A DNA stretch of 5,172 bases, from the IMG/VR virus record IMGVR_UViG_2778261249_000003, positions 1 through 5,172 of that record. One strand, given 5' to 3'. Each line of letters starts with the position of its first letter. Position 1 is the stretch's first letter. Position numbers and translations under genes: made by a program. A model generated the notes under the pieces. The model was not told the origin of the DNA, searched no databases, and worked only from the letters and a program-made list of their open reading frames with translations. The DNA comes from a virus (lineage: Duplodnaviria; Heunggongvirae; Uroviricota; Caudoviricetes). This document shows positions 1 to 5,172 of the stretch, one piece after another.

Positions 1-534
1 CTGCGTATTCAGCAGGCGTTTGAAGGTTTAAGCGTCGCCGGGTCGGTGGGGGCCTATCAGTATCATGGTCGCAGTGCCGACGGGCGTGTCGCGGATATTT
101 CTGTCACCAGTCCGTCTCCGGCCTGCGTCACCATCTCTGTGCTGTCACGTGAAAATAACGGTGTGGCATCCGAAGACCTGCTGGCGGTGGTGCGCAACGC
201 CCTTAATGGTGAGGACGTCAGACCGGTGGCCGACCGTGTGACCGTGCAGTCTGCCGTCATCGTTGAATACCAGATAAATGCCACGCTTTACCTTTATCCT
301 GGCCCCGAAAGCGAACCCATTCGCGCTGCCGCCGTGAAAAAATTGGAAGCGTATATCACGGCACAGCACCGGCTGGGGCGCGACATCCGACTGTCTGCCA
401 TTTATGCCGCTTTGCATGTGGAAGGCGTGCAGCGTGTCGAACTGGCTGCACCGCTGGCCGACATCGTGCTCAACAATACGCAGGCGTCTTTCTGTACCGA
501 ATACAGCGTCGTGACCGGAGGCTCGGATGAGTGA
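1..534 (+). CDS. J: Baseplate assembly protein J, C-terminal part (5' end lies outside the window)
   Basis: Frame 1 is open from nt 1 with no stop until TGA at 532-534; the ORF track's start at 46 is an internal GTG. Sits directly upstream of the tail protein I homolog and overlaps its start (ATGAGTGA at 527-534), the J-I-H order of P2-like tail clusters. Assignment rests on synteny and recalled similarity, not a search. Confidence 0.8.
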   Translation: MRIQQAFEGLSVAGSVGAYQYHGRSADGRVADISVTSPSPACVTISVLSRENNGVASEDLLAVVRNALNGEDVRPVADRVTVQSAVIVEYQINATLYLYPGPESEPIRAAAVKKLEAYITAQHRLGRDIRLSAIYAALHVEGVQRVELAAPLADIVLNNTQASFCTEYSVVTGGSDE

Positions 535-1138
535 TTCGCGACTGCTGCCGACCGGCTCATCACCGCTTGAAGTCGCTGCCGCAAAAGCCTGTGCGGAAAT
601 TGAAAAAACGCCGGTCAGTATTCGTAAGCTGTGGAACCCGGACACCTGCCCGGCAAATCTGCTGCCGTGGCTGGCGTGGTCATTTTCGGTTGACCGCTGG
701 GATGATAAGTGGCCGGAAGCGACAAAACGCGCTGTTATCCGCGATGCGTATTTCATTCACTGCCATAAGGGCACTATAGGCGCAATCCGGCGTGTGGTGG
801 AGCCGCTCGGCTATCTGATTGAGGTGAGGGAGTGGTGGCAGCTCAACGAGGAGCCGGGGACGTTCCGCATCGTTGTTGGCGTGCTTGAGCAGGGTATTAC
901 CGAGGAAATGTATCAGGAGCTGGAGCGCCTCGTTACTGATGCAAAACCGGCAAGCCGCCATCTGACGGGACTGGCTATCAGTTTAAGTACAACCGGCAAC
1001 ATTTTTGCCGGTGCGGGATGCTATCACGGCGACGCCCTGACGGTTTATCCCTACACCCCGGAGGCCATTATTGTCGGAGGGGATTATTTCCCGGCCTCGG
1101 CCATTCATTTAATTGATAACCTGAGAGTAAACGCATGA
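527..1138 (+). CDS. I: Phage tail (baseplate) protein I
   Basis: 203-aa ORF starting MSDSRLLPTGSSPLEVAAAKA. GGAGG at 517-521 lies 5 nt upstream of ATG 527. Start overlaps the J stop and the stop (1136-1138) overlaps the H start (ATGA at 1135-1138). Position between J and the tail fiber gene. Confidence 0.88.
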   Translation: MSDSRLLPTGSSPLEVAAAKACAEIEKTPVSIRKLWNPDTCPANLLPWLAWSFSVDRWDDKWPEATKRAVIRDAYFIHCHKGTIGAIRRVVEPLGYLIEVREWWQLNEEPGTFRIVVGVLEQGITEEMYQELERLVTDAKPASRHLTGLAISLSTTGNIFAGAGCYHGDALTVYPYTPEAIIVGGDYFPASAIHLIDNLRVNA

Positions 1139-2502
1139 CAGTGAAATACTACGCCATTCTGACTAATCAGGGCGCGGCACGGCTGGCTAACGCGACGATG
1201 CTCGGCAGTAAGCTGAATCTGACGCAAATGGCCGTTGGTGATGCGAATGGTGTCTTGCCGACACCAGACCCGGCACAGACAAAACTGATTAATCAGAAAC
1301 GCATTGCACCGCTGAATCTTCTGAGTGTTGACCCGAACAACCAGAGCCAGATTATTGCGGAGCAAATCATCCCTGAGAACGAGGGCGGATTCTGGATCCG
1401 TGAGATTGGGCTTTATGATGATGAAGGCGTACTCATTGCGGTGGCGAACTGCCCGGAAACGTACAAACCGCAGTTGCAGGAAGGCAGTGGTCGTACCCAG
1501 ACTATCCGCATGATTCTGGTTGTCACGAATACCGAAGCTATTACGCTGAAAATCGACCCATCGGTGGTACTGGCGACCCGTAAATACGTGGATGATGAAG
1601 TCCTGGAATTAAGGCTGTATGTGGATGAACAGATGAGAAACCACATTGCCGCACAGGATCCTCATACCCAGTATGCACAGAAACATAATCCGACATTTAC
1701 CGGAGAACCAAAAGCGCCGACGCCTGCCGCAGGAAATAACACCACGCGGATTGCGACCACTGAGTTTGTTCAGGCCGCTATTACCGCTCTGATTAACGGT
1801 GCGCCAGCCACGCTGGACACACTGAAAGAAATTGCCGCAGCCATTAACAATGACCCGAAATTCAGCACCACCATTAACAATGCGCTGGCACTGAAAGCTC
1901 CGCTGTCGAGTCCCGCACTTACCGGAACGCCAACAGCACCTACTGCGGCACAGTCGGTCAACAATACACAGATTGCCACCACGGCTTTTGTGAAATCAGC
2001 AATTGCGGCAATGGTGGGTTCTGCCCCTGCGGCACTGGATACACTGAATGAACTGGCGGCGGCGCTGGGGAATGACCCTAACTTTTCAACAACAGTGCTT
2101 AATGCACTGGCAGGCAAACAACCGCTGGACAATACGCTGACTAATTTGAGTGGAAAGGATGTTGCTGGTCTTCTCGCATACCTTGGTTTGGGAGAAGCGG
2201 CAAAACGGAATGTGGGAACAGGGGAAAATCAGATACCTAGTATGTCAGAATGGACATCTGGGACAGGATGGAATAGAGACCCGTCGGGGAGAATAATACA
2301 GCGGGGATTTGCTATGACATCAAGTCAAACTAACATTTTATTCCCGATACCATTTCCGTATGACGATTTCGAAGTTATCGTTTGTGCAGCAGATACAGGA
2401 GCAAATAAAGGGGCCGTAAATGTGTTGCGAAAATCGAGGCAGGGGTTTTCTGTTTCACAGGTTGGAAGTATGCCAGTCGCATACAGATGGATAGCGGGGT
2501 GA
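1135..2502 (+). CDS. H: Tail fiber protein H: constant N-terminal shaft (aa 1-350) plus the currently expressed variable C-terminal tip (aa 351-455)
   Basis: 455-aa ORF. N-terminus (MTVKYYAILTNQGAARLA...MAVGDANG...GGFWIREIGLYDDEGVLIAVAN) is typical of P2/Mu-type tail fiber N-terminal domains. Contains two tandem ~75-aa repeats in the shaft. The left 26-bp crossover site lies in-frame at 2171-2196 (codons L-L-A-Y-L-G-L-G-E). Sequence downstream of the site is AT-richer. Confidence 0.9.
   Translation: MTVKYYAILTNQGAARLANATMLGSKLNLTQMAVGDANGVLPTPDPAQTKLINQKRIAPLNLLSVDPNNQSQIIAEQIIPENEGGFWIREIGLYDDEGVLIAVANCPETYKPQLQEGSGRTQTIRMILVVTNTEAITLKIDPSVVLATRKYVDDEVLELRLYVDEQMRNHIAAQDPHTQYAQKHNPTFTGEPKAPTPAAGNNTTRIATTEFVQAAITALINGAPATLDTLKEIAAAINNDPKFSTTINNALALKAPLSSPALTGTPTAPTAAQSVNNTQIATTAFVKSAIAAMVGSAPAALDTLNELAAALGNDPNFSTTVLNALAGKQPLDNTLTNLSGKDVAGLLAYLGLGEAAKRNVGTGENQIPSMSEWTSGTGWNRDPSGRIIQRGFAMTSSQTNILFPIPFPYDDFEVIVCAADTGANKGAVNVLRKSRQGFSVSQVGSMPVAYRWIAG
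2171..2196. other. Left crossover site for DNA inversion (gix/cix/pix-like, 26 bp): TTCTCGCATACC-TT-GGTTTGGGAGAA
   Basis: Two 12-bp half-sites around a 2-bp core (TT at 2183-2184). The right half-site GGTTTGGGAGAA is the exact reverse complement of the left half-site of the 3954-3979 site. Perfect 15-bp inverted repeat: 2183-2197 TTGGTTTGGGAGAAG versus 3953-3967 CTTCTCCCAAACCAA. Half-sites fit the TTnTCnnAAACC-type pattern of Hin/Gin-family sites. Confidence 0.85.
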
Positions 2503-2507
2503 TTGAA

Positions 2508-2945
2508 ATGTATAAATTTGATCCAAAGAATGCATTATTCTATCCTGCCGCGTCAATTTCCGATTATAAATTGAGCGAAGATGAAATCGCCACATTCACT
2601 GATATTAGCGAGGAGGATGCAACCGAGTTTTTAGGATTCCCGCCGACTGGAAAAATCAGAGGGTCGGACGGTTATGGCAATCCTGCATGGGTTGAAATAC
2701 CTCCACCATCACATGAGGAACTTATTGAACAGGCCGAATCAGAGAGGCAATTATTGATTAACCATGCCAACGAATACATGAACAGTAAACAATGGCCTGG
2801 TAAAGCGGCTATTGGTCGTCTGAATGGTGAGGAACTGGCGCAATATAATTTGTGGCTGGATTATCTGAACGCACTGGAACTGGTTGATACCTCCAGTGCG
2901 CCAGATATTGAATGGCCTACGCCTCCGGCAGTTCAGGCCAGATGA
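2508..2945 (+). CDS. Tail fiber assembly (chaperone) protein, expressed orientation
   Basis: ORF ending ...LAQYNLWLDYLNALELVDTSSAPDIEWPTPPAVQAR, the conserved C-terminal motif of phage tail-fiber assembly proteins. ATG 2508 is preceded by GGGG at 2496-2499 (8-nt spacer) and follows the H stop (2500-2502). An in-frame ATG at 2487 would overlap H by 16 nt and has no obvious SD, so the start is ambiguous between 2487 and 2508. Confidence 0.8.
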   Translation: MYKFDPKNALFYPAASISDYKLSEDEIATFTDISEEDATEFLGFPPTGKIRGSDGYGNPAWVEIPPPSHEELIEQAESERQLLINHANEYMNSKQWPGKAAIGRLNGEELAQYNLWLDYLNALELVDTSSAPDIEWPTPPAVQAR

Positions 2946-3510
2946 CATCCGGCGCGGTGCTGGTATCTGTTGCCGTCACCGCGTCAATGTAATCCAGCAC
3001 AGCGTTAAGTCGGGTGGTTTCTGCCTGCGTCAGTTTACGTCCGGCCTGCAATTTCAGTTGAATCAGACTGATGGAAGCCATTGCAGTATCAATCAGCGAC
3101 TGGCGCTGTGCTTCTGCTGCATCTACTGCGGCGCTATGCTGTGCCTCAGTATCTGTCACCCATTTCTCACCATCCCATTTATCGTATGGCGTTAACGGTG
3201 AAAGCGTGACATAACCGTCTTTGATGGCACCGATATAATCCACTGTAACAGCTGCGCCATTTTCGATTGAGTAAACAGTCTCATTGCGGTGGTCTTCTTC
3301 ATGGCTCCATCCCTTACCCGTAAATACTGCCACTTTCCCCGGAATGTATTCGCCCGGGTCAATACCAGTGGAACAGGCGGGCATACTTACGCCAGTATTA
3401 ATATATTCATCAGACCAGCCCGTATACTCAGATGTTTCAGCATCATAATAAAAACAACGCATATCGCCCGGCACTGTAGCCAGCCCATTTTCATCAAAAA
3501 CAGGTTTCAT
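2917..3510 (-). CDS. Tail fiber assembly (chaperone) protein, alternate copy (Tfa') inside the invertible segment
   Basis: 197-aa minus-strand ORF with C-terminus ...LNAVLDYIDAVTATDTSTAPDVIWPELPEA, the same motif as the + strand chaperone, but an unrelated N-terminal half. Its ATG (3508-3510) overlaps the stop of the upstream minus-strand fiber cassette (TAATG). GAGGG lies about 9 nt upstream on the minus strand. Its 3' end overlaps the + strand chaperone gene by 29 bp (2917-2945). Confidence 0.85.
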   Translation of the reverse strand: MKPVFDENGLATVPGDMRCFYYDAETSEYTGWSDEYINTGVSMPACSTGIDPGEYIPGKVAVFTGKGWSHEEDHRNETVYSIENGAAVTVDYIGAIKDGYVTLSPLTPYDKWDGEKWVTDTEAQHSAAVDAAEAQRQSLIDTAMASISLIQLKLQAGRKLTQAETTRLNAVLDYIDAVTATDTSTAPDVIWPELPEA

Positions 3511-4007
3511 TATTTAGCCCTCACCAGAAAGTTAAATGCAATATTTCGCGGTCTGACAGCAACAAAATTCACACCATCACCCACAGAGTTACTGGTGAAA
3601 TTAAATCGTGAAAATCCTGGCTGATTTCCGGCGATGCCATCATGAAAGTTAATTGCGTGTCCCGCACCTCCGCCTATATTCCCGGCAAACTGAGAAAAGT
3701 TTGTAGCTTCCTGCCAGCTTAATAATTCGCGACCACCATCGGCACCTCGCCCGTCATCCCAGATACGAATGAAATCACCGCGGGCTTCAGGTAATACCAG
3801 TGAAGGAAACACTTTCGCCAGCACAGGGTAATCAGAGGCAGAAAATTTCGCCCCGTTGAACTTCAAAAACACCATACTGGACCAGCTGTCGATTACAGTA
3901 TTTGGCATTGCAGCGGACGGCCAGAAGAACGGAACGCCAATAGCTGGAGCACCTTCTCCCAAACCAACGTTTATGAAAATGCAGAGATAACGGGCAAGTG
4001 GCATCAT
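3510..4007 (-). CDS. Silent alternative tail fiber C-terminal cassette (Sv'-like; tail-collar-type receptor-binding tip), not joined to a fiber N-terminus in this orientation
   Basis: Minus-strand ORF, 165 aa as drawn from a Met-Met at 4007. The right crossover site (3954-3979) lies within it, encoding G-L-G-E in the same codon phase as the left site in H. The downstream 151 aa (GAPAIGVPFFWPS...LPEARGDFIRIWDDGRGADGGRELLSWQ...) carry a motif recalled as the phage tail-collar domain. Functional extent after inversion would be 3510..3966 fused to H codons 1-350. Confidence 0.75.
   Translation of the reverse strand: MMPLARYLCIFINVGLGEGAPAIGVPFFWPSAAMPNTVIDSWSSMVFLKFNGAKFSASDYPVLAKVFPSLVLPEARGDFIRIWDDGRGADGGRELLSWQEATNFSQFAGNIGGGAGHAINFHDGIAGNQPGFSRFNFTSNSVGDGVNFVAVRPRNIAFNFLVRAK
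3954..3979. other. Right crossover site for DNA inversion (26 bp): TTCTCCCAAACC-AA-CGTTTATGAAAA, inverted relative to the left site
   Basis: Core AA at 3966-3967 is TT on the minus strand. The reverse complement TTTTCATAAACG-TT-GGTTTGGGAGAA matches the left site in its core and entire right half. Located 55 bp upstream of the invertase start codon. Confidence 0.85.
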
Positions 4008-4034
4008 CTCCGGTTTTTATTCAGGGGGATGCTC

Positions 4035-4628
4035 ATGCTTATTGGCTATGTACGCGTGTCAACAAATGACCAGAACACGGAATTGCAGCGTAACGCGCTG
4101 GAGTGCGCAGGATGTGAGCTGATTTTTGAGGATAAAATCAGCGGCACGAAGTCCGACAGGCCGGGGCTGAAAAAACTGCTCAGAACATTATCGGAAGGTG
4201 ACACTCTGGTTGTCTGGAAGCTGGACCGGCTGGGGCGTAGTATGCGGCATCTGGTCATTCTGGTTGAGGAGCTGCGCGAACGCGGCATTAATTTTCGCAG
4301 CCTGACGGATGCCATTGATACCAGTACGCCGATGGGGCGTTTTTTCTTTCATGTGATGGGTGCCCTGGCTGAAATGGAACGAGAGCTCATTGTCGAGCGG
4401 ACTCGGGCCGGGCTGGAAGCGGCCAGAGCCAAAGGTCGTATTGGTGGCAGACGTCCTAAACTCACCGCGAGTGAGTGGGAGCAGGCCGGGCGTTTGCTGG
4501 CTGCAGGGGAGTCACGTCAACGCGTGGCACTGATTTTTGATATTGGTCTGTCCACGCTCTATAAAAAATTTCCCTCATCAGCGACAAAGAATAAATTGTG
4601 TCATCCCTTAGCCAACCGGGACAAATAG
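4035..4628 (+). CDS. Serine-recombinase DNA invertase (Gin/Cin/Pin/Hin family)
   Basis: Translation MLIGYVRVSTNDQNTELQRNAL...LVVWKLDRLGRS...GINFRSLTDAIDTSTPMGRFFFHVMGALAEMERELIVERT...RIGGRRPKL... has the resolvase/invertase catalytic domain with the nucleophilic Ser at codon 9 (TCA 4059-4061) and a C-terminal HTH region. AGGGGG at 4023-4028 lies 6 nt upstream of ATG 4035. The ORF-track start at 4029 would leave no spacer after that SD. The gene lies immediately outside the right crossover site, as in the Gin/Cin/Pin arrangement. Confidence 0.93.
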   Translation: MLIGYVRVSTNDQNTELQRNALECAGCELIFEDKISGTKSDRPGLKKLLRTLSEGDTLVVWKLDRLGRSMRHLVILVEELRERGINFRSLTDAIDTSTPMGRFFFHVMGALAEMERELIVERTRAGLEAARAKGRIGGRRPKLTASEWEQAGRLLAAGESRQRVALIFDIGLSTLYKKFPSSATKNKLCHPLANRDK

Positions 4629-4687
4629 CCTGACATCTCCGGCACAACTGAAAATACCACTCACCCATTAACCACGGAGTTGAACGG

Positions 4688-5172
4688 ATGAGTGACTATC
4701 ATCACGGCGTGCAGGTGCTGGAGATTAACGACGGCACCCGCGTCATTTCCACCGTATCCACTGCCATTGTCGGCATGGTCTGCACGGCCAGCGATGCGGA
4801 TGCGGAAACCTTCCCCCTCAATAAACCGGTGCTGATTACCAATGTGCAGAGCGCAATTGCAAAGGCCGGTAAAAAAGGCACGCTGGCGGCATCGTTGCAG
4901 GCCATCGCCGACCAGTCAAAACCGGTCACCGTTGTCGTGCGTGTGGAAGACGGCACCGGCGACGATGAAGAAACGAAACTCGCGCAGACCGTGTCCAATA
5001 TCATCGGCACCACCGACGAAAACGGCCAGTACACCGGACTGAAAGCCCTGCTGGCGGCGGAGTCGGTAACCGGTGTTAAACCGCGTATTCTCGGAGTGCC
5101 GGGACTGGATACCAAAGAGGTGGCTGTTGCACTGGCATCAGTCTGTCAGAAGCTGCGCGCTTTCGGGTATAT
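4688..5172 (+). CDS. FI: Tail sheath protein FI, N-terminal part (3' end lies outside the window)
   Basis: ATG at 4688 preceded by GGAG at 4676-4679 (8-nt spacer). Frame is open to the window end (161 codons, no stop); the six-frame track omits it for lack of a stop. Translation [54 protein letters not shown]... matches my recollection of the P2 FI sheath N-terminus. Confidence 0.88.

Follow-up and report, generated by a model that had tools for sequence, protein, structure and literature searches.

The stretch of DNA analysed here, called the window below, comprises 5,172 nucleotides (nt) of a virus of the Caudoviricetes (IMG/VR record IMGVR_UViG_2778261249_000003, positions 1 to 5,172), and carries within a tail-fibre gene an invertible segment that would join one constant fibre shaft in turn to either of two C-terminal tips. 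These tips appear to be unrelated: the one expressed in the sequenced orientation (tip A) is a gp53-like lectin-type beta-sandwich and the silent one (tip B) is a divergent tail-collar domain. Taken as a whole, it seems to us very probable that the window covers the tail-fibre genes of a P2-like (Peduovirus) Escherichia coli prophage, apparently an intact one, in which the fibre gene holds an invertible cassette of the type of the e14 P segment. The gene map was built from an open reading frame (ORF) map and Pfam scans of the window together with the annotation of identical RefSeq loci, and the elements of the switch are as follows.

1135..2196, plus strand: constant part of the fibre, P2 gpH-like, 354 amino acids, with the hinge ...LAYLGLGE at its end (part of ORF 1135-2502; PF12571)
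1135-2502, plus strand: expressed fibre, 455 amino acids
2171..2196: left crossover site of 26 base pairs (bp), TTCTCGCATACC-TT-GGTTTGGGAGAA, recognised by its inverted repeat, half-sites and central dinucleotide
2184..3966: invertible segment, 1,783 bp between the central dinucleotides, defined by in-silico inversion and by the flipped state in E. coli E7
2197..2502, plus strand: tip A, expressed, Gp53-like_C lectin-like beta-sandwich receptor-binding domain (101 amino acids and stop), following the conserved linker AAKRNVGTGENQIP
2508..2945, plus strand: tfaA, chaperone cognate to tip A, 145 amino acids (PF02413 Caudo_TAP, 108 bits; phrog_188)
2917..3510, minus strand: tfaB, chaperone cognate to tip B, 197 amino acids (PF02413, 95.7 bits; phrog_105)
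3510..3953, minus strand: tip B, silent, divergent tail-collar domain (147 amino acids and stop) made up of an N-terminal half, a distal insert of about 55 amino acids and the closing strand RPRNIAFNFLVRAK
3954..3979: right 26-bp crossover site, reverse complement TTTTCATAAACG-TT-GGTTTGGGAGAA
4035..4628, plus strand: serine DNA invertase of the Pin/Gin family (PF00239 Resolvase, 177 bits; PF02796 HTH_7, 48.4 bits)

The segment 2184-3966 is a Pin/Gin-type invertible switch within the tail-fibre gene. The longest inverted repeat of the window pairs 2171-2197 with 3953-3979 around a central TT/AA, and its 15-nt core, TTGGTTTGGGAGAAG, is present in exactly two inverted copies, at 2183-2197 (plus strand) and 3953-3967 (minus strand), whereas none of 200 shuffles gave such a match. 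The same core forms the repeat of the e14 P segment (sequence comparison; PMC12529663), and the neighbouring invertase shares 87% of its residues with PinE of e14 and 80% with Gin of Mu. The positions given for the switch in the original prediction, 2197-3966, fit the segment between the 26-bp sites. In-silico inversion of 2184-3966 keeps the reading frame and yields a fibre of 501 amino acids with the same first 354 residues followed by 147 new ones; each orientation therefore has an in-frame fibre (455 or 501 amino acids) with its own chaperone gene, tfaA or tfaB, directly downstream. The flipped state exists in nature: the same prophage, inserted at the same site of the chromosome, is present in E. 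coli E7 with its segment reversed, and the E7 DNA is collinear with the in-silico inverted window (99.79% identity over 5,172 nt, no gaps) and codes for exactly the 501-residue fibre. The window orientation is present in strains E5, 64.1 and GPEC1258, and E7 and APEC17 both carry the segment on the other strand at matching coordinates, the flip relative to the flanks being confirmed for E7. RefSeq splits the flipped fibre of E7 (3828-5333 of the extracted locus) into two incomplete pseudogene pieces, although the DNA holds one intact 501-residue ORF, and the silent tip of E5 is likewise labelled a pseudogene. In the mechanism that we propose, a Pin-family invertase would recombine the two 26-bp sites inside the fibre coding sequence, which code for the hinge LGLGE (the left site codes for ...LAYLGLGE). 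In the sequenced orientation the 354-residue shaft would be fused to tip A and tfaA co-transcribed, and after inversion the same shaft would stand in frame with tip B, followed by tfaB.

Single-sequence searches proved too weak for both tips, the best hit of tip A among solved structures having an E-value of merely 0.1 (4MTM) and tip B matching the T4 gp37 tip (2XGF) at 0.0095, and family profiles were therefore required. Tip A has 101 amino acids if both tips are counted after the common GLGE hinge (tip B then has 147), rather than the 105 first ascribed to it. It is a gp53-like lectin-type beta-sandwich, the fold of AP22 gp53 and of the 'foot' of the R-pyocin fibre, and would presumably assemble as a trimer and bind a receptor, probably a carbohydrate. 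PF21882 (Gp53-like_C) is matched at 36 bits by the tip alone and at 30.9 bits within the full fibre (cut-off 24.9), over positions 1-81 of the 84 of the profile. An exhaustive search placed the relatives of tip A in 176 representative clusters, all but its own at 68% identity or less over the matched stretches and most below 55%, while a word-indexed protein search returned just 10 close relatives. In an alignment of 36 family members, every one of which matches PF21882, a conserved linker, AAKRNVGTGxNQIPDM, precedes a variable globular part. The profile of this family recovered, among solved structures, only the R2 and R1 pyocin fibres, AP22 gp53 and the short tail fibre gp92 (E 1e-7 to 3e-6). 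The AlphaFold2 monomer is all-beta and confident throughout, with a predicted local distance difference test score (pLDDT) of 87.7 and a predicted template modelling score of 0.73. The stop codon of the expressed fibre (2500-2502) lies 5 nt ahead of the tfaA ATG at 2508.

Tip B is a collar domain of the T4 gp37/gp12 type with an inserted distal region. It is matched by PHROG families 3100 and 523, tail fibre and tail collar fibre (E 2e-50 and 3e-41). In an alignment of 30 species-diverse relatives, the N-terminal half and the closing strand, RPRNIAFNYIVRA, are conserved, and the 40-80 residues inserted between them are hypervariable; 24 of these relatives match the Pfam Collar domain (best E 8e-17). 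With the family profile, the T4 gp37 tip (2XGF) was reached at E 1.9e-24 in two stretches, the N-terminal half and ...NIAFNYIVR, amounting to a split collar; further matches were a short tail fibre (9CUY, 6.7e-19) and gp12 (1OCY, 1PDI and 5IV5, 3e-5 to 3e-4). In tip B the collar of gp37 is matched in its N-terminal half by the pattern G-PxxWP...NG..F....YP.L......LPD.RG and in its closing strand by RPRNIAFNFLVRA against KNIAFNYIVR. The needle of T4 gp37 is known for His-x-His metal-binding motifs; unlike that needle, the distal insert of tip B, about 55 amino acids, lacks His-x-His as read from the sequence. Structure prediction for tip B used an alignment built from protein-search hits, and its AlphaFold2 monomer (mean pLDDT 57.8) is confident only at residues 1-61 and 139-147. 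Foldseek ranked 2XGF first for this model (E 3e-3, probability 0.94), the template modelling scores not being meaningful. The N-terminal collar half of tip B has a 9-residue insertion at residues ~18-29 (window 3870-3910), reading NTVIDSWSSMVF in place of TGWLKC, and close relatives of tip B have the insertion too. Some relatives combine a canonical collar half (PTGWLKCNG) with a distal insert nearly identical to that of tip B, which indicates recombination even within the tip. The tip B stop overlaps the tfaB start on the minus strand (TAATG, window 3508-3512).

Comparison of the two tips revealed no similarity by BLASTP, a probability of only 0.8% when their family profiles were aligned with hhalign, and no Pfam or PHROG family common to both, and the solved structures matched by the two families are different PDB entries. 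By these measures the tips are not homologous, and the switch would toggle between two different families of receptor-binding domains. The original prediction had proposed just this from peptides that we find where it placed them, GVPFFWPS and LPEARGDFIRIWDDGRGADGGRELLSWQ in the minus-strand ORF 3510-4007 and AAKRNVGTGENQIPSMSEW... and FPIPFPYDDFEV at the C-terminus of the 455-residue ORF 1135-2502; profile searches assign the two tips to no single family, and of the structure predictions it had called for, made here on monomers, that of tip A is confident and that of tip B is so in the collar part only.

The chaperones point in the same direction. Both clear the Caudo_TAP cut-off of 22.1 bits, and TfaA and TfaB resemble each other only over their C-terminal 87 amino acids (33% identity, E 4e-13). 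The tfaA ORF is listed as 2487-2945, and its likely start is put at 2508, where RefSeq begins the gene in the identical locus. The two genes are convergent with 3' ends that overlap by 29 bp (2917-2945), so that their last codons lie on opposite strands of one DNA stretch, and the same overlap is seen in pro483 and in e14 (tfaP/tfaE). Over all fetched loci, a TfaB-type N-domain follows a collar tip in 148 cases and a TfaA-type N-domain follows a gp53-like tip in 21, counts that overstate the statistical support, as many of these loci are near-identical prophages and not independent. No cross-pairing of tip class and Tfa N-domain class was seen in the fetched loci, those remaining being too diverged or truncated to call. 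Such class-matched pairing agrees with the Tfa model as outlined in PMC9608196, which summarises North et al. 2019: the variable N-domain binds the fibre and the conserved C-terminal helices trimerise. Each tip would thus travel with a chaperone N-terminal, fibre-binding domain of its own class, the C-terminal trimerising domains being homologous.

The surroundings of the switch are those of a P2-type tail module, with the order J, I, H, tfa, tfa', tip', invertase and sheath along the window, and the flanking genes are these.

46-534: end of the baseplate protein J
527-1138: tail protein I
from ~4688: start of the sheath gene

All tail genes visible in the 5.2-kb window are intact, and PF12571 (Phage_tail_fib) covers residues 1-150 of the fibre at 210.7 bits. 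With Escherichia phage pro483 and other Peduovirus prophages, the window shares 96-97% DNA identity outside the fibre tips. Its central 2 kb (2100-4100) are 100% identical to three complete genomes of poultry E. coli, strains 64.1, E5 and GPEC1258, and E5 is 99.8% identical to the whole window. P2 itself has H, G and the Z/fun hotspot at the corresponding place; its single H/G fibre-chaperone pair would here have been replaced by an invertible cassette of the e14 P-segment type.

Comparison with related cassettes indicates that both tips are mobile modules, each made up of the tip and the N-domain of its own chaperone, the expressed one being the rarer. Against pro483, homology is lost over 2238-2681 and 3199-3950 and kept in the hinge and over 2682-3198, which holds the C-terminal domains of both chaperones. 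We assembled 80 viral contigs picked for a tip-B-like tip. DNA identity of at least 90% extends over 2900-3970 in about 65 of the 80 and over 2301-2600 in two. The partner of the tip-B-like tip in these contigs is a convergent gp53-like tip in 53 and a second collar in three; a partner could not be detected in nine, and a further 15 contigs are too short to show one. In the 63 fetched loci with a gp53-like partner (54 viral contigs and 9 genomes) there are 45 distinct partner tips, two of them at least 90% identical to tip A. Conversely, all six viral contigs with tip A have a collar partner, and in four of the six it is a different collar tip, the homology to the window ending at 3198. Across complete E. 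coli genomes, module A occurs in 20 of 5,426 and module B in 786 of 5,426. The copies of module A are at least 95% identical in all 20 genomes and at least 99% identical in 20 of 25 records. Most of the 12 listed carrier genomes, from the 20 in all, come from poultry or other birds, and this tip A module (2238-2681) may have spread recently in avian E. coli lineages. The cassette has a mosaic make-up in which blocks made of the globular part of a tip and a Tfa N-domain are exchanged on either side, with the conserved hinge and linker and the conserved Tfa C-terminal domains as the probable recombination joints; in the present cassette a rare gp53-type module is joined to a very common collar-type one.

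The cassette is also found outside P2-like prophages. In E. coli E423 the whole segment, 99.9% identical, lies in a non-P2 prophage beside dusA with ymfQ, gp47-like and gp46-like baseplate genes, and the invertase of that prophage is just 53% identical to that of the window, from which it follows that the cassette passes from one tail module to another, unrelated one and that more than one Din-family invertase can serve it. RefSeq and nr entries for tip-B fibres of Mu/e14-like prophages bear the name 'integrase' (WP_113414962.1, for instance, and the E423 locus at 4328-5074); the proteins are tail fibres ending in a collar, and the name looks like a propagated misannotation. A further contig, IMGVR_UViG_2698536484_000010, has two opposite copies of tip A and a collar tip by an invertase (3501-3803 plus, 5129-5620 plus and 6643-6945 minus, in coordinates of the extracted locus), and by analogy with the P2-like prophage of enteropathogenic E. 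coli (EPEC; PMC4272514) this suggests a multi-segment, shufflon-like cassette.

The original prediction had also set the expressed tip apart by its guanine-plus-cytosine (GC) content, and we computed the composition of the parts as follows.

Constant fibre: GC 51.9%, third-position GC 52.5%
Tip A: GC 46.2%, third-position GC 37.6%
Tip B: GC 48.5%, third-position GC 42.9%
J: GC 58.5%, third-position GC 63.2%
I: GC 55.7%, third-position GC 60.3%
Whole invertible segment: GC 47.3%
Rest of window: GC 54.6%

The hand count of 42-45% GC at 2221-2400 is reproduced (45.0, 41.7 and 43.3%), whereas the 57-60% put down for the constant fibre and J holds for J and not for the constant fibre, the 60-nt lines of which range from 45 to 58%; the sheath gene has 57.5-58.0%. 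The expressed tip is richer in adenine and thymine (AT) than J, and either tip differs from J (p below 0.003), but its difference from the constant fibre is marginal in overall GC (p = 0.09), with p = 0.009 at third positions, and the silent tip is about as AT-rich (Fisher p = 0.55; third positions p = 0.43). Low GC is in fact found in both tips and in the N-terminal half of either chaperone gene, the N-terminal region of tfaB having 46.2%, while the C-terminal half is clearly GC-richer in tfaB (54.5%) and slightly so in tfaA (47.7%). Base composition as a mark of tip A alone being foreign was for this reason rejected. The view behind it, that only the expressed tip is a recent low-GC import and the silent collar is the native P2 tip, is one that we consider improbable. 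It can draw on the low third-position GC of tip A relative to the constant fibre and on the scarcity of module A, with 20 carriers among the 5,426 genomes and 10 close proteins, beyond which the nearest relatives reach no more than 53% identity. Yet the AT-richness is shared by tip B and the N-terminal region of tfaB, module B is swapped among cassettes as well, with homology breakpoints on both sides, and the entire cassette moves between unrelated prophages. The tip of P2 gpH, moreover, matches neither profile and resembles the distal domain of Mu S, so that neither tip is 'native P2'. What stands of the proposed horizontal acquisition is that tip A belongs to a rare swapped-in module (~2238-2681; two of 80 cassettes); the compositional argument for it does not discriminate, the silent tip being equally AT-rich, and the silent module (3199-3950) is exchanged in the same way.

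Apart from the non-independence of the loci behind the pairing counts, several observations weigh against the reading of two chaperone-matched, unrelated tips on one switch. The Pfam Collar profile (PF07484) scores only 16.6 bits on tip B, below its cut-off of 24, and spans just residues 28-62; the tail-collar call made at the outset is thus upheld by the family profile and not by the Pfam threshold, and the 9-residue insertion in the collar half probably accounts for the low score. Precomputed Collar matches are absent from close relatives of tip B (at least 80% identity) and present in those at 40-75%. The tip B model falls below pLDDT 50 at residues 62-138, the presumed receptor-binding insert. 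Composition does not set either tip apart from the other as foreign. No member of its family is shorter than tip A, the C-terminus of which reads WIAG where the relatives have WIAIGx, pointing to a possible slight truncation. Lastly, inversion in this particular strain and function of either fibre are predicted from the DNA.

Alternatively, the tips could be highly diverged homologues of one fold, with the switch varying surface loops only, and such same-family alternatives do occur: Mu S and S' end in homologous domains (36% identity over the last ~77 residues, E 1e-9), the same domain is found in P2 gpH, and Mu thus toggles within one family. Caudo_TAP chaperones also serve both tips of the window. 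We nonetheless regard this as extremely unlikely, given the hhalign result, the differing PDB entries and PHROG families, and an all-beta model for tip A as opposed to a confident part of the tip B model that has a helix and matches the gp37 collar. It is only slightly less implausible that tip A is a decayed remnant, leaving the switch effectively frozen with a non-functional fibre in one orientation. The loss of ~2-3 C-terminal residues of the WIAIGx consensus and the RefSeq status of parts of these fibres as pseudogenes would fit decay. Set against them, the ORF is intact, nearly all of PF21882 is covered and the model is confident to the end; the module is at least 95% identical in its 20 carrier genomes, and both orientations occur in near-identical prophages. 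The pseudogene labels themselves are annotation artefacts of promoter-less or fused ORFs.

A further alternative is that the cassette mainly or additionally serves the host, and it turns on one more element.

3968..4007, minus strand: short leader outside the segment, MMPLARYLCIFINV, followed by the site-coded GLGE (ORF 3510-4007)

With its own ATG, an 18-residue leader, MMPLARYLCIFINVGLGE, forms together with tip B a complete ORF of 165 amino acids, and in the flipped state leader and tip A would give 119 amino acids. These leader-plus-tip ORFs are analogous to StfE and StfE2 of e14. Inversion of e14 creates StfE2, a short protein with a gp53-like domain, which is reported to block T2 adsorption (PMC12529663). 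By that precedent the promoter-distal tip could act as a small free receptor-masking protein (MMPLARYLCIFINVGLGE plus tip) that blocks other phages. Besides the complete ORF of the silent tip and the crossover core and invertase family shared with e14, such a role is favoured by the abundance in databases of both the 119-residue form and a 164-residue leader-plus-tip-B form, in clusters of hundreds. Nevertheless, the visible tail genes are intact, making fibre switching the simpler account; a promoter and terminator scan of 2000-4750 gave nothing above chance, so that no such promoter leads into the short ORF, although the scan in itself speaks neither for nor against separate expression of that ORF; the GGAG read just 0-3 nt from the ATGs of the leader ORFs is poorly spaced for a ribosome-binding site; and the short ORF in the window orientation carries the collar tip, not the gp53-like domain implicated in e14. 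We therefore think a host role unlikely, and by the same analogy with e14 there is only a slim chance that the promoter-distal tip is expressed in lysogens, rather than silent, in either orientation. Were it so, one inversion would alter two things together: the receptor specificity of the phage, and a free protein of the opposite fold that masks receptors and shields the host from other phages.

Returning to a fibre switch with two unrelated tips, the arrangement belongs to a known kind, and cassettes of this family normally carry the pairing, as e14, pro483 and 53 of the 80 related viral contigs have it; what had been taken for a peculiarity of this locus is its usual state. The closest relative is the e14 P segment of K-12 (stfP/ycfK, tfaP, tfaE, stfE and pinE), with the same layout of tip, tfa, convergent tfa', tip' and invertase, including the overlap of the tfa 3' ends, and similar in size (1,783 bp in the window, 1,797 bp in e14; PMC12529663). 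It has the same pairing, with StfP ending in a gp53-like tip (E 2e-10), a distant relative of tip A, and stfE coding for a collar tip (E 5.9e-51). In contrast to the cassette of the window, which lies in an apparently intact P2-type tail module with a 354-residue P2 gpH-like shaft, e14 is defective and has a short constant part; conversely, a host-defence role (StfE2) is reported for e14. Pro483 has a backbone 96-97% identical flanking the tips (1-1887 and 3951-5172), the same gene order, and again a gp53-like expressed tip and a collar silent tip, but both of its tip modules differ from those of the window, its expressed tip being 41.7% identical to tip A.

The closest known systems also include the C segment of P1 and the G segment of Mu (S/U, S'/U' and Gin). 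The latter, the one compared here, is likewise a Din-family switch with a constant N-terminus and alternative C-termini, each with a Tfa-type chaperone. Its variable parts are ~320-335 amino acids long, against 101 and 147 in the window, and neither the gp53-like nor the collar profile matched the tips of Mu S/S' or P2 gpH. The structurally characterised relatives of tip A, the R-type pyocin fibre foot (6CL6, 6CT8 and 6CXB) and AP22 gp53 (4MTM), share PF21882 at about 20% identity; unlike these, tip A is reached through a DNA switch and is predicted to be assembled with a Caudo_TAP chaperone. Much of the background has been described before: inversion has been shown experimentally in P2-like prophages (EPEC) and in e14 (PMC4272514), invertases and fibre swapping are known from the P2 Z/fun hotspot (bioRxiv 10.1101/2024.10.15.618418), and a gp53-like domain is on record for one product of e14 inversion (PMC12529663); PMC9942202 makes no mention of invertible cassettes. 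RefSeq already labels halves of the locus 'gp53-like domain-containing protein' and, in relatives, 'phage tail-collar fiber domain-containing protein'.

The pairing opens no new question, as it is already present in K-12 e14 and in most relatives of the cassette. It does confirm that a switch of this class can offer two receptor-binding domains without common ancestry, each matched by its chaperone, as opposed to the two variants of one domain in Mu. A population of lysogens would likely release two types of virion with different receptor specificities, amounting to a change of host range. For the prediction of host range from prophages, which of the two folds gets annotated as 'the' fibre depends on the orientation caught by the assembly, and labels such as pseudogene or even 'integrase' are often wrongly given to the other half. 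Likewise, in the engineering of P2-type particles and tailocins, the exchangeable unit would be the tip with its Tfa N-domain, the probable joints lying in the hinge and linker and in the Tfa C-domain.

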